A DNA stretch of 64,000 nt from Oscillospiraceae bacterium. GTDB lineage: Bacteria > Bacillota > Clostridia > Oscillospirales > JAKOTC01. A program made the translations under genes and the position numbers. Within the stretch, counting starts at the first letter, position 1; each line of letters opens with the position of its first letter. The notes beneath the pieces are model-generated. The model was not told where the DNA came from and did not search any database. It saw only the letters and a program-made list of their open reading frames with translations. The stretch spans positions 43,562-107,561 of the forward strand of contig DAOSWV010000004.1 in NCBI GenBank assembly GCA_035380125.1. The letters are read 5' to 3'. Shown in pieces: positions 58,631-62,475 of the stretch.

Positions 58631-59590
58631 TTAATACGCGCGATTCTTCACACAGCAGTCGACGTAATATTCCACGGTTTCCGGGGTGATGTCCAATGCC
58701 TGATAATCGGGATAGACCTCATACAGCAGGCCGCCGTTAAAGCTGCCCAGTTTCTCTTTTAACGCGATGACTTCCTTCAAAATGGTCTCTTTATCTCCTG
58801 TTGGCAGCGTACGCTGCAGATCGGCGGTTGTGGAAAAACATAACCGCCCTCCGGCGTTTTTAGAGAGCCAGTCGACGCCGTATACGGTCGGCTGGTGCAG
58901 CTCGATCACGTCGAGACCGCATTCGATAAGATCGTTGATAATATCATTGTTTTTGCCGCAGCTGTGCATATATGTAATCAGTCCGAGGGATTTGGCTGTC
59001 TGAAACATACGGGTATACCAGGGCTTAAAGAGTTCACGCCACAGATCAGGTGCGATCATCAAACGATCTTGAAGGCCCCAGTCGTCGCCGCCCCAAAGAG
59101 CGTCAACGCCGCATTTGGCGTATTCCTTGATCATTTCGCACTGAAAATCGACGATCTTGTCACCGAGGGATTGAATCGCCTCACGCTCGTTATAGAGATA
59201 GTCGAAAAGATCTTCCATGCCCACCAGATAATGCATCCGTTCAAATAAATAATTGGCCATGGAACCGAAGACAAATAAGTCTTGCTTTTTCAGATCATCA
59301 ACGCGTTCTTTCACGCCCTGAAAACGGACGTCGAGCGCGAGCGGGGGGGCCTTGAAGTCCAATATGGCCTGAACGGAACTCAATGGGTGCTCGGTGACCT
59401 GTCCGATGGTCTTGTCGCCTTCGAGTTTTGTAAAATGGTAAAGCCATTCGCCCGGAGCAGCGGCTTTGTAGCCGACGCACATGCAGTCGCCCATGCTCTT
59501 ATACGGCTCGGGGCAGTATCCCGTATTCAAAGGCACCCACTCCGGTTTGTTGAATTGAATTGCCCGGAAAAAATTCTCCCGCCTGGTCAT
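58631..59590 (-). CDS. uroporphyrinogen decarboxylase (URO-D) family protein
   Basis: 319 aa. LWGGDDWGLQDRLMIAP...YMHSCGKNNDIINDLIECGLDVIELHQP matches the URO-D/MtaA-like fold pattern. Confidence 0.7.
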   Translation of the reverse strand: MTRRENFFRAIQFNKPEWVPLNTGYCPEPYKSMGDCMCVGYKAAAPGEWLYHFTKLEGDKTIGQVTEHPLSSVQAILDFKAPPLALDVRFQGVKERVDDLKKQDLFVFGSMANYLFERMHYLVGMEDLFDYLYNEREAIQSLGDKIVDFQCEMIKEYAKCGVDALWGGDDWGLQDRLMIAPDLWRELFKPWYTRMFQTAKSLGLITYMHSCGKNNDIINDLIECGLDVIELHQPTVYGVDWLSKNAGGRLCFSTTADLQRTLPTGDKETILKEVIALKEKLGSFNGGLLYEVYPDYQALDITPETVEYYVDCCVKNRAY

Positions 59591-59854
59591 AACAATAACT
59601 CCTTTTTATAAAAAGATTATCAAAATTTGGGATCGCGATATGCCCATTATACAAATTCACAGTTGTTTTGTAAATCCTAAAATACAAAATATTAAATAAA
59701 AATTTTTGTCTAAAGGAAATACTTGATTATAAGTGTCCGCATACTTAAGTACTCTTGAGCGGTAGCCACTGGGCGGTTACAAATTCCTCGGCCGGAGAAT
59801 ATCTTTTTGTGGGAGAAAGCATAAATAAACTAAAGCACTCACAATCTTACGAGT

Positions 59855-60170
59855 GATTTTTGGAGGGTTAGGTCGGTAAACCGATTTCCCGAGAGATCGA
59901 CAAGTTCGATTCTCTGAATTTCTAAAAAAACAAAAGAACACCCTAAAGGAGTCCTTTCATTTTTGGAGGGCACCAGGGAATCGGTGAACCGATTCTCTGA
60001 GAGATCGAAAAGTCCGATTCTCTGTATTTCTAAAAACGAAAGAGCACCCCTTCGGGTACCCTTCCATTTTTGGAGGGCACCAGGGAATCGGTGAACCGAT
60101 TCTCTGAGAGATCGAAAAGTCCATTCTCTGTATTTCTAAAAACAAAAGAGCACCCATTCGGGTACTCTTC
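59855..60170. repeat. three tandem ~103-107-bp units, each a tRNA-3'-end-like segment plus two hairpins plus a terminator-like hairpin
   Basis: Units lie at about 59855-59957 (degenerate), 59958-60064 and 60065-60170. The last two differ by 3 substitutions and one 1-nt indel. Each starts CATTTTTGGAGGGCACCA, like the tRNA-Cys 3' flank CATTTTTGGAGGCACCA at 60171. Confidence 0.9.
60137..60169 (-). terminator. intrinsic terminator of the tRNA operon; this is the terminal hairpin of repeat unit 3
   Basis: On the minus strand, AAGAGTACCC-gaat-GGGTGCTCTT is followed by TTGTTTTT, 7 nt after the CCA of tRNA-Cys. Confidence 0.55.
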
Positions 60171-60176
60171 CATTTT

Positions 60177-60251
60177 TGGAGGCACCACCGAGAATCGAAC
60201 TCGGGAATAGAGGTTTTGCAGACCTCTGCCTTACCGCTTGGCTATGGTGCC
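60177..60251 (-). tRNA. tRNA-Cys (GCA), CCA encoded
   Basis: Manual fold: acceptor GGCACCA/TGGTGCC, anticodon arm GAGGT-CTGCAAA-ACCTC, T arm CCGAG-TTCGATT-CTCGG. Confidence 0.9.
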
Positions 60252-60262
60252 GGGGATGAATG

Positions 60263-60290
60263 CGAGGGTGTATATTTTTATACACCCTCG
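60263..60290. other. perfect 12-bp hairpin in the tRNA-Gly/tRNA-Cys spacer
   Basis: CGAGGGTGTATA-tttt-TATACACCCTCG. On the minus strand it follows CCA-AAAAA of tRNA-Gly. On the plus strand it is followed by T6. Confidence 0.8.
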
Positions 60291-60295
60291 TTTTT

Positions 60296-60371
60296 TGGAG
60301 CGGATGACGAGGCTCGAACTCGCTACCTCAACCTTGGCAAGGTTGCGCTCTACCGGATGAGCTACATCCGC
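60296..60371 (-). tRNA. tRNA-Gly (GCC), CCA encoded
   Basis: Acceptor GCGGATG/CATCCGC and anticodon arm CAACC-TTGCCAA-GGTTG. Confidence 0.9.
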
Positions 60372-60463
60372 AAATTTGCGTCGCTGGAGACGCTTTGGGT
60401 TAGTCCGCGTCGGCAGAAGAATCGCGGTGCAGGGAAGGTGGTGTTGGGACGGCGCGGGGTAAA

Positions 60464-60539
60464 TGGTGCCTCCGGTCGGAATTGAACCAACGACACGGGG
60501 ATTTTCAGTCCCCTGCTCTACCAACTGAGCTACAGAGGC
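60464..60539 (-). tRNA. tRNA-Phe (GAA), CCA encoded
   Basis: Acceptor GCCTCTG/CGGAGGC, anticodon arm GGGGA-CTGAAAA-TCCCC, T loop GGTTCAATTCC. Confidence 0.9.
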
Positions 60540-60542
60540 AAG

Positions 60543-60619
60543 TGGCGACTCGGAAGGGGGTCGAACCCTCGACCTCTAGCGTGACAGGCTAGCGTTCTAA
60601 CCAACTGAACTACCGAGCC
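60543..60619 (-). tRNA. tRNA-Asp (GTC), CCA encoded
   Basis: Acceptor GGCTCGG/CCGAGTC, anticodon arm CTAGC-CTGTCAC-GCTAG, T loop GGTTCGACCCC. Confidence 0.9.
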
Positions 60620-60622
60620 ATT

Positions 60623-60698
60623 TGGTGGGAACAACAGGGCTCGAACCTGTGACCCCCTGCTTGTAAGGCAGATGCTCTCCCAGCTGAGCTATGCTCCC
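60623..60698 (-). tRNA. tRNA-Val (TAC), CCA encoded
   Basis: Acceptor GGGAGCA/TGTTCCC, anticodon arm TCTGC-CTTACAA-GCAGG, T loop GGTTCGAGCCC. Confidence 0.9.
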
Positions 60699-60742
60699 CC
60701 ACGCGTCCCGGAGAACCTCTCTGCCAGCCGGCGACGGATAAC

Positions 60743-60772
60743 ATAATAACACAATTCGAAGGGTATTGTCAA
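60743..60772 (-). promoter_or_regulatory. sigma-A-type promoter of the tRNA operon
   Basis: On the minus strand: TTGACA (60772-60767), an 18-nt spacer, then TATTAT (60748-60743) preceded by TGTGT. It lies about 45 nt upstream of tRNA-Val. Confidence 0.5.
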
Positions 60773-60807
60773 TACCAAAAACCAGTTTTTTTAGATTTTT
60801 TCCGCCT

Positions 60808-62475
60808 TTAAAATAATCCGCTTATAAGACCGTTTTGATCGATGTCGATAGTGCTTGCGGCCGGCACTTTGGGCAATCCGGGCATGGTCATAATATCACC
60901 CGTGAGTGCCACGACAAAGCCCGCGCCGGTGCAAAGACGCAGATTGCGCACCGTCAGCTTAAAGTTTCTCGGCCGTCCGAGTTTCTTGGGATCATCGCTG
61001 AGTGAATATTGGGTCTTGGCGATGCAGACGGGCAATTTGTCCAGCCCGAGGGCCTGAATTTCATTCAGACGTTTTAAAGCCATATCCTCAAACACAACTT
61101 CATTCGCACCGTAAATTTCCCGGGCAATACGTTCGATCTTTTCGGTGACCGTCATTTTATCGGTGCAGAGCGGTTTGAAATTTCCCCCCATATCTGCTGC
61201 TGCCGCGACTTTTTCAGCAAGATATACGGCGCCTTTCCCGCCCTCCGAAAAGCCGTCACTGACCGCGCAGTCGGCGCCGTATCGTTCAGCAATTTGCAGG
61301 ATGGCGGTGATTTCCTCGGGAGTATCGGTCGGGAAGCGGTTGACGGCGACAACGACCGGAAGCCCGTATTTTTTAATATTTTCAATGTGGGCAGCGAGGT
61401 TTACACTGCCTTTTTCGACTGCGGCTGCGTTTTCAATACCGAGTTTGGCTTTTGCAATGCCTGCGTTGTATTTTAATGCGCGCACTGTGGCGACCAGCAC
61501 GACCGCAGACGGCGTCAAACCGGCGGCGCGGCATTTGATATCAAAAAACTTCTGCGCGCCCAGATCGGCGCCGAATCCGGCCTCCGTGATGCAGTAATCG
61601 GCCAGTTTCAACCCGAGTTTTGTCGCTCTGACAGAGTTGCAGCCGTGGGCAATATTGGCGAACGGGCCGCCGTGCATCAGGCAGGGCGTACCCTCAAGGG
61701 TTTGAACAAGGTTGGGATTGACCGCATCTTTAAGGAGTGTCGCCATTGCACCCTGTGCGTTCAGCTGACGGCAGAAGACCGCATTCCCTTCGAGGTCGTA
61801 ACCCACAAGAATATCACCGAGTCGCTTTTTGAGATTGGCGATGTCCGTGCAGAGGCAAAGTGCCGCCATAACCTCGGAAGCCGCGGTGATGTTAAAGCTG
61901 TCGGAGCGCATAAAGCCGTTGGCTTTGCCGCCGATGCCGACAATGATTTCGCGCAGCGCACGGTCGTTCATGTCCATGCAGCGGCTGAAGTAAATACGCC
62001 TTGTATCGAGACGCAGGGCATTGCCATGGTTGATATGATTATCGATTACGGCGCACAGCAGGTTATTGGCAGCTGTGACTGCGTGGATATCGCCTGTAAA
62101 ATGGAGGTTGATGTCCTCCATCGGAATCACCTGGGAATAACCGCCGCCCGCAGCGCCGCCTTTGATGCCGAACACCGGTCCGAGAGACGGTTCGCGCAGT
62201 GCGATAATGGCATTCTTTCCGATCTGTCTCATCGCTTGTCCGAGTGCGACGGTGGTTGTGGTCTTGCCCTCTCCCGCAGGGGTGGGGTTGATCGCGGTGA
62301 CCAAAATCAATTTTCCGTCGGGGCGGTCTGCGGTTCGTTCAAAAGCCGATTGCGTGATTTTTGCCTTATATTTTCCGTAGGGTTCGAGTTCGTCGGACGG
62401 AATCCCGAGTTTATCGGCGATTTCGGCAATCGGCAGTGACTTGGCTGCTTGGGCGATTTCGATGTCGGAAAGCAT
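60808..62475 (-). CDS. fhs: formate--tetrahydrofolate ligase
   Basis: 555 aa with SDIEIAQ, TAINPTPAGEGKTTTTVAL and DGFSEGGKGA, the typical FTHFS blocks. Confidence 0.95.
   Translation of the reverse strand: MLSDIEIAQAAKSLPIAEIADKLGIPSDELEPYGKYKAKITQSAFERTADRPDGKLILVTAINPTPAGEGKTTTTVALGQAMRQIGKNAIIALREPSLGPVFGIKGGAAGGGYSQVIPMEDINLHFTGDIHAVTAANNLLCAVIDNHINHGNALRLDTRRIYFSRCMDMNDRALREIIVGIGGKANGFMRSDSFNITAASEVMAALCLCTDIANLKKRLGDILVGYDLEGNAVFCRQLNAQGAMATLLKDAVNPNLVQTLEGTPCLMHGGPFANIAHGCNSVRATKLGLKLADYCITEAGFGADLGAQKFFDIKCRAAGLTPSAVVLVATVRALKYNAGIAKAKLGIENAAAVEKGSVNLAAHIENIKKYGLPVVVAVNRFPTDTPEEITAILQIAERYGADCAVSDGFSEGGKGAVYLAEKVAAAADMGGNFKPLCTDKMTVTEKIERIAREIYGANEVVFEDMALKRLNEIQALGLDKLPVCIAKTQYSLSDDPKKLGRPRNFKLTVRNLRLCTGAGFVVALTGDIMTMPGLPKVPAASTIDIDQNGLISGLF

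Follow-up and report, generated by a model that had tools for sequence, protein, structure and literature searches.

Tandem units directly 3' of tRNA-Cys

In an uncultured Oscillospiraceae bacterium of the gut/digester type, three tandem units of ~106 bp lie directly 3' of a five-tRNA operon. The operon reads Val-Asp-Phe-Gly-Cys on the minus strand (60698..60177) of the window, that is, of the whole 64-kb stretch of DNA that was analysed, and operon and array have FTHFS (formate-tetrahydrofolate ligase) and a URO-D family gene as neighbours. The last gene of the operon, tRNA-Cys(GCA), occupies 60177..60251 on the minus strand (ARAGORN; 66 bits with the Rfam tRNA model), and its last 21 nt, CGATTCTCGGTGGTGCCTCCA (60197-60177, minus strand), are the source of the copies in the units. 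TRF reported a sole array, at 59873-60187, with a period of 106/107, 3.0 copies, 86-88% matches and a score of 448-465; it overlaps the last 11 nt of tRNA-Cys as delimited by ARAGORN. This agrees with the sequence-only reading of this DNA, which had described three further copies of the tRNA-end layout downstream of the operon.

Unit borders were set by cutting at the CCA ends, and all unit sequences and positions are read on the minus strand. Each unit starts with AAAA, followed by a long hairpin with a U-run (an intrinsic terminator) and then AGAAATA. The middle of the unit comprises hairpin H1 (GAGAATCGG/CGATcTCTC) and hairpin H2 (GAGAATCGG ttca CCGATTCCC), and the end after H2 reads TGGTGCCCTCCA. 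In unit A (106 nt, 60176-60071), terminator T_A spans 60176-60138, H1 spans 60128-60106 and is weakened by a 1-nt deletion, H2 spans 60106-60081, and the tRNA-end copy lies at 60090-60071. Similarly, unit B (107 nt, 60070-59964) holds terminator T_B at 60070-60032, H1 at 60022-59999, H2 at 59999-59974 and the tRNA-end copy at 59983-59964. Unit C (103 nt, 59963-59861) is the most diverged; it contains terminator T_C at 59963-59924, an H1 with the same sequence as the H1 of related species at 59914-59891, an H2 with two A.C mismatches at 59888-59870, and a decayed tRNA-end copy (AACCCTCCA) at 59869-59861. Between units A and B, 3 substitutions and one 1-nt indel were counted, exactly as had been read from the letters, and unit C, also seen earlier as the more diverged, differs by ~20-25%. 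The two internal hairpins and the A-run, hairpin and U-run of the terminator, both noted before, are present in 3/3 units, and the degenerate hairpin plus ATTTTTGGAGGG junction, likewise noted before, was located at 59836-59867. The earlier claim that every unit carries the TGGTGCC acceptor-strand copy holds for units A and B, in which the copy of tRNA-Cys comprises ~21 nt from the T-loop to CCA, and fails for unit C, which lacks TGGTGCC, ends in ...CCGACCTAACCCTCCA and keeps only CCCTCCA of the tRNA tail.

A search of the window with a 28-nt unit pattern gave 3 matches vs 0.00 expected. Moreover, three further assemblies of this species match the 1218-bp intergenic region, 3 units included, at 100% identity over the part covered by each, and a fourth shows 3 substitutions in the region, all outside the array. 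Collectively, these results indicate that the array is genuine and is neither a chance arrangement nor an assembly artefact. As the sequence-only reading had held, it is not CRISPR-like: conserved repeats with unique spacers are not seen, and whole units are homologous from end to end.

No other copy of the unit was found in the 64-kb window or, with up to 4 errors allowed, in 255 kb of related loci, so that the copies elsewhere or at the ends of integrated elements, for which a search had been proposed, did not appear there, and a dispersed palindromic repeat (REP/BIME/MITE-like) was rejected for the same lack of copies outside the array. No Rfam family matched the units, and a permissive scan returned real tRNAs and noise only. 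IMG/VR gave 0 matches for the H1 motif and 0 for the tRNA-Cys tail, and the phage and plasmid collections gave no blastn match. In the genome contig collection, the unit pattern had 2 chance matches, both in coding DNA with no tRNA nearby, one of them clearly in a leucine-rich-repeat gene. In metagenome contigs, a first scan with the unit pattern gave 0 matches and a second gave only the contig of one related species (species 2, below) and 3 chance matches in coding DNA; because this collection does not hold the JGI contigs that carry the array (e.g. Ga0116162_10000036), absence there is weak evidence.

Related modules and copy number among species

The locus was recovered in relatives via FTHFS (proteins 87-89% identical) and the URO-D protein. 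The same kind of module, with units of 87 to ~125 bp, follows tRNA-Cys in three further species, within an FTHFS-tRNA-(URO-D) neighbourhood; related units, whose absence from all relatives would have spoken against the sequence-only reading, are therefore present. In species 2 (L013-L016), the order is tRNA-Cys, terminator, AACCTCTA, CGAGAATCGAACTTGTCGATCTCTCGG-TGGTGCC-TCCA and a final terminator, with two 87-bp units in L016 and one in L013-L015. In species 3 (L017 and L009), the modules measure about 115-125 bp and number at least four; two are two-hairpin modules with H2 of the form GAGGCCGG ttct CCGGCCTT. Species 4 (L026) has one one-hairpin and one two-hairpin module. Species 5 (L030) is without the H1 module and shows a different repeated terminator-like unit. 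The L030 contig begins within the T-arm of tRNA-Cys, and its positions 1-350 hold two copies of this other ~90-nt unit (a terminator-like hairpin plus a pyrimidine-rich tract) with long inverted repeats.

Strains and species carry 1, 2, 3 or at least 4 units. Over 1577 nt, the only difference between L016 and L013 is one extra, 100% identical 87-bp unit in L016. Since the two differ by one whole unit, copy number changes by unequal recombination or slippage. The earlier suggestion of a slippage-generated terminator array is consistent with the gain and loss of whole identical units and with the strong terminator in each, and captures only a part of what the units contain.

Where present, the module is linked to tRNA-Cys, while the downstream gene varies by species. 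Synteny on the URO-D side is broken in species 3 by an inserted GerABC operon; the FTHFS side remained usable. Between the array and the URO-D gene lies nothing in the window and L026, a 23S_rRNA_IVP/Avd-like gene in L013, IVP plus Gly-zipper in L012, IVP plus Gly-zipper plus GerABC in L030, and GerABC in L009; the interval is an indel hotspot with no visible integrase. Further repeats lie beside the array, namely purine-rich GGGCAGAGGTGAGAGGACAGAGGGCAG repeats in species 3 (L009 100-400) and an 18-nt x2.4 repeat, CATGAAGAGGCCTTCGGC, in a row of small hairpins in species 2 (L013 6432-6474). Type III toxin-antitoxin RNA repeats (ToxI-like) were also considered and rejected, with no conserved toxin gene at the locus and a downstream gene that varies (URO-D, IVP, GerABC).

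Derivation of the units from tRNA-Cys

The alignment of units A and B to the final 21 nt of tRNA-Cys has 19 matching positions, 2 gaps and a z of 4.2 vs shuffles, with some of 2000 shuffles scoring above the observed value. In the related species, the tail copy matches at 22/22 with one inserted C (z = 11-12). The similarity to the tRNA end thus goes past the shared CCA flank, a point on which the sequence-only reading had made itself refutable. Regarded as a possible att core, the tail repeat is imperfect in the window and near-perfect in the relatives, where the extra C is common to all. Beyond the tail, the unit body of A and B compared with tRNA-Cys in direct orientation gave no significant similarity (p 0.13-0.17).

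Additional traces of the tRNA were found in H1. A 12-nt stretch of the tRNA T-arm recurs, as an exact reverse complement, in the H1 of unit C, with p about 0.001 before correction for about 30 tests; this inverted 12-mer becomes meaningful because the relatives show the T-arm reverse complement in H1 as well. In every species that has H1, the 5' arm of this hairpin reads CGAGAATCGAACT, which is the T-arm (AGTTCGATTCTCG) in reverse complement, and the 3' arm together with the tail repeats the T-loop-to-CCA sequence in direct orientation, with one extra C. Furthermore, an anticodon-stem piece, AACCTCTA, precedes H1 in species 2 and 4, and the units of species 3 have a further anticodon-stem piece, GGCAGAGGT. 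Taken together, the H1 arms, the tail and the anticodon-stem pieces indicate that the units descend from a partial 3' copy of tRNA-Cys in which the T-arm was rebuilt into a longer palindrome. Neither ARAGORN nor the Rfam tRNA model, even at E<=10, found a tRNA or tRNA pseudogene in the units; only the five real tRNAs were returned. The earlier option of a tandemly amplified, tRNA-derived structured RNA is accordingly borne out in part, as regards the tRNA-Cys-derived 3' fragment.

Terminators, promoters and flanking signals

Each unit has a G+C-containing stem-loop immediately followed by a U-run on the transcribed strand, which makes a predicted intrinsic terminator. The hairpin energies of T_A, T_B and T_C are -22.5, -25.2 and -14.6 kcal/mol, and the U-runs after them read UUUUGUUUUU, UUUCGUUUUU and UUUUGUUUUUUU, respectively. 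A simple terminator scan flags part of T_B and a distal hairpin. Several G.U pairs in the terminator hairpins of the window form on the tRNA strand only, and the plus-strand folds are weaker; this fits hairpins that end the tRNA operon. The distal hairpin (59823..59860, minus strand) is weak (-5.9 kcal/mol), is followed by an interrupted U-run (AAAATCACTCGTAAGATTGTGAGTGCTTTAGTTTATTT) and takes the same position as CACGCGTAAAGCGTG-T7 of species 2. It is probably the ancestral terminator of the operon.

A promoter-like site of the tRNA operon, TTGACA-18-TATTAT with a TG extension, lies at 60743..60772 on the minus strand and is conserved in species 2 and 3. The leader between its -10 box and tRNA-Val (60699-60742) contains ~40 nt (CCGTCGCCGGCTGGCAGAGAGGTTCTCCGGGACGCGTGG) that are identical or nearly so in three species, although four-fold sites of these species are only ~55-60% identical. 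On the other side, a promoter-like site of the next gene (URO-D family, 59590..58631) is found 3' of the array at 59646..59674 on the minus strand, and its TTTACAA..TGTATAAT is conserved in species 2 and 4. The array therefore sits between two transcription units on the same strand. Within the array, no promoter-like site was found on either strand. An antisense small RNA was rejected on this ground, and the nearest plus-strand site (59656-59683) meets a hairpin and T-run before the array.

Two other pairings were observed. At the unit junctions (59964-60070 / 60071-60176), a duplex of -17.4 kcal/mol is possible between the pseudo-acceptor strand GGTGCCCTCC and GGAAGGGTACC, the 5' arm of the terminator that follows. 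Such a duplex would compete with the -25 kcal/mol terminator in the manner of an anti-terminator; it is confined to the window species, species 2 having none, and was set aside. Between tRNA-Gly and tRNA-Cys, after CCA and an A-run, a hairpin with a 12-bp stem, CGAGGGTGTATA..TATACACCCTCG, lies at 60262-60291. It lacks a U-run on the tRNA strand and scores as an intrinsic terminator on the plus strand, and in species 2 and 3 its stem is identical and its loop different. Its role may be that of a one-way (antisense) terminator or of a hairpin used in processing.

Conservation of the hairpins and a possible trailer RNA

To place the conservation of H1 and H2, we compared it with the background between the species. 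Four-fold degenerate sites show 0.50-0.66 identity between species (0.40 in one pair; 0.88 between species 2 and the closely related L012), and ordinary intergenic DNA is 35-47% identical and alignable only at promoter boxes and compensated terminators. In contrast with this level, terminator, AACCTCTA, H1 and GGTGGTGCC are identical at 78/83 positions between species 2 and 4, after which the sequences abruptly become unalignable, and 24-26 nt of H1 are identical among unit C of the window, species 2 and species 3. In an alignment of six two-hairpin modules, H1 shows sequence identity only, with no covariation. H2 has double-sided changes at 4/8 pairs, its covariation score is reached by 1/500 shuffles, and slid controls score lower; these values rest on about four independent sequences. 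The covariation among copies and orthologs that had been proposed as a check is hence present for H2 and absent for H1. In folding, units A and B were more stable than shuffled sequences (z -5.0 and -4.4); for the H2 of unit C, pairing is stronger on the opposite strand. The covariation of H2 is suggestive of RNA structure; given so few sequences, and since palindromes can co-vary through template switching at the DNA level, it is not proof of one.

H1 is preserved far above the neutral level, and H2 retains its stem despite the changes in it, so something maintains the hairpins, be it selection, horizontal spread or palindrome correction at the DNA level. A back-up terminator role does not account for the conserved hairpins. 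One explanation, which we regard as possible though on balance doubtful, is a functional trailer RNA resembling RtT. Read-through past the first terminator would yield transcripts from which the units are cut out or stabilised as ~100-nt RNAs, and H1/H2 with the exposed ...GGUGCC(C)UCCA tail (with CCUCC) would have a role in trans or in processing, such as that of a decoy for enzymes or RNAs whose target is the 3' end of tRNA-Cys. The conservation of H1 and the acceptor tail, the paired changes of H2 and the folding of units A and B all argue for such an RNA, as do the constant company of module and tRNA-Cys and the annotation of the E. coli analogue as the small RNA RttR. The strong terminator heading every unit argues against abundant transcripts, because it leaves the hairpins beyond a stop signal. 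Further points against it are that H1 lacks covariation, that the opposite-strand preference of unit C H2 leaves the strand ambiguous, that the covariation comes from ~4 sequences and could reflect template switching, that L030 is without the module, and that no Rfam match was obtained.

In a broader form of this proposal, which we advance tentatively and consider unlikely, H1 plus the tRNA-Cys acceptor tail, with or without H2, would be a genus-specific functional element at the end of the tRNA-Cys operon and would mimic a tRNA 3' half. It could work, from read-through, as an RtT-like small RNA or decoy with a ...GCCUCCA / CCUCC tail, or as a DNA palindrome recognised by a protein. Selection may then keep H1 and the tail while the surrounding terminators and spacers turn over.

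Possible integration scars and small open reading frames

The sequence-only reading had also raised stacked att-site scars. According to this explanation, the units would be scars or miniature cis-mobilisable remnants of elements that integrated at the 3' end of tRNA-Cys, the tail copies being direct repeats of the attL/attR type and H1 a core-type inverted repeat of a recombinase. Displaced tDNA fragments are an accepted mark of integrations at tRNA genes (PMC4383910; PMC9897764), T-loop-to-CCA direct repeats bound every unit, and in H1 an inverted repeat of 8-9 bp flanks a short spacer. The tRNA-Cys/URO-D interval is a hotspot of gene content (nothing, IVP, Gly-zipper or GerABC by species), and recent horizontal spread could likewise produce block similarity across diverged species. 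Nevertheless, no integrase or any other gene lies within or adjoining the array in five species, which extends the earlier statement that the window has none. Only ~85 nt, without a gene, separate successive copies of the tRNA end, and the interiors of the units are homologous to one another and hold only terminator and hairpins. The extra unit of L016 is 100% identical to its neighbour within the same flanks, as expected from unequal crossing-over. In addition, the extra C of the copied T-loop is common to all species, which indicates descent from one ancestral copy and not repeated integrations; the spacer of H1 is unlike the tRNA T-loop, which would leave the overlap regions mismatched; and the IMG/VR, phage and plasmid collections were empty. 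On this evidence, we do not favour the att-site option and judge it improbable.

A small protein encoded by the repeats, for instance from GTG GTG in the acceptor strand (VVPPK...) in parallel to E. coli tpr, which is annotated within the E. coli repeat, is very hard to credit: ORFs of 43-66 aa run over the array, a gene caller predicts a 66-aa ORF across the species 2 units, and one frame contains the LRR-like LVDLSGNRFTD, but several frames are open on both strands, which makes the open frames a composition effect, a Shine-Dalgarno sequence is missing upstream, the frame shifts between units because lengths of 106/107 nt do not divide by 3, and, by our reading, 3/5 of the changes that separate species 2 from species 4 in that frame are non-synonymous. 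The leucine-rich-repeat motif appears in the minus-strand frames 59891-59930 and 60088-60125 (LVDLSGNRFTD / LFDLSENRFTD). Since the unit length does not divide by 3, the motif was judged coincidental; the leucine-rich-repeat gene hit by the unit pattern was a chance match in unrelated coding DNA.

Discussion

The reading that we prefer is that the array is a tandemly duplicated module in which an intrinsic terminator is joined to a remodelled 3' fragment of tRNA-Cys, to which we assign a probability of roughly 0.6. The comparisons between strains and species demonstrate the derivation from tRNA-Cys, the inheritance within the genus, and the gain and loss of whole units without change in the flanks. 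For the course of events, we propose that, in an ancestor of this Oscillospiraceae genus, ~80 nt from the tRNA-Cys anticodon loop through CCA plus the terminator would have been duplicated in tandem. In the non-functional copy, the T-arm would then have been rebuilt into the longer hairpin H1, whose arms (an inverted T-arm and a direct T-loop-to-acceptor sequence with the extra C) look like the signature of an inverted duplication or a template switch. Because each copy ends in the same ~20-nt tRNA tail and A-run, whole units would be added or removed when the tRNA end and its copies undergo unequal homologous recombination or when replication slips between them. In the lineage of the window, the two-hairpin version (H1+H2), with its own terminator sequence, would have been amplified three times.

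With regard to transcription, the first terminator, judging from its sequence, would stop most transcripts from the strong tRNA promoter. The later units would at most back up this terminator and so insulate the next gene, and the tRNA-derived hairpins would appear in read-through RNA only. Against a purely neutral by-product stands the finding that the expected decay is not seen in H1 and, in part, H2. A further point against our reading is that one related species (L030) is without the H1 module altogether.

The closest precedent is the E. coli tyrT/tyrV repeat (RtT / RttR RNA, tpr ORF), which is analogous and not homologous. In E. coli tyrT, transcription ends in a Rho-dependent manner within the repeat, from which an RNA is also processed. 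These observations are said to go back to Kupper in 1978, Rossi in 1981, and Bosl and Kersten in 1991. Re-examined with the same tools, E. coli tyrV has a 178-bp x3.1 array with 95% identity that begins in the tyrV 3' end and whose units end in the last 19 nt of tRNA-Tyr (AATCCTTCCCCCACCACCA); this control gave 4 RtT (RF00391) matches of 133-137 bits, with rttR and tpr annotated. In contrast, RF00391 had no match at E<=10 in 59400-61000 and none at E<=1 in four related loci; without a covariance-model match, the units are not members of the RtT family. Bosl and Kersten 1991 is cited in PMC3318445.

The array resembles tyrT/tyrV in layout and probably in origin. Both start in the 3' end of the last tRNA gene of the operon on the same strand, have ~3 copies, end their units in a tRNA T-loop-to-CCA tail (19 nt in E. 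coli, ~21 nt here), and contain further decayed tRNA-like bits and short doubtful ORFs. Unlike tyrT/tyrV, the present units show no sequence or structure homology to the E. coli repeat, follow tRNA Cys and not Tyr, belong to another phylum and measure 87-125 bp vs 178 bp; moreover, an intrinsic terminator of its own heads each unit here, and the T-arm copy is rebuilt into an inverted-repeat hairpin.

Two other known arrangements share features with the array. Like attR-type displaced tRNA fragments, it has a partial 3' copy including CCA as a direct repeat downstream of the intact gene, and such a repeat is a hallmark for mapping islands (PMC4383910, PMC9897764). In contrast to those fragments, no island, integrase or foreign DNA lies between the copies, which are spaced at ~106 bp with homologous interiors, and copy number changes without flank change. 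The consecutive hairpin-plus-U-run signals before the next promoter also recall the tandem back-up intrinsic terminators of stable-RNA operons, whereas here the signals are not independent but copies of one another in a repeat unit with tRNA-derived hairpins.

Our literature search found no Firmicute case already described. In practice, such arrays break short-read assemblies, as seen from several contigs here that stop within them, and they can pass for att sites, tRNA pseudogenes or novel RNAs. The layout of E. coli tyrT, with tandem repeats carrying a tRNA 3' tail, also occurs in a distant Firmicute lineage without detectable homology, and its presence in two distant lineages makes the ends of tRNA operons look like recurrent sites of such duplication. 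If expressed, the remodelled T-arm hairpin H1 would be a new tRNA-derived small RNA and would provide a second, independent example for the RtT puzzle.
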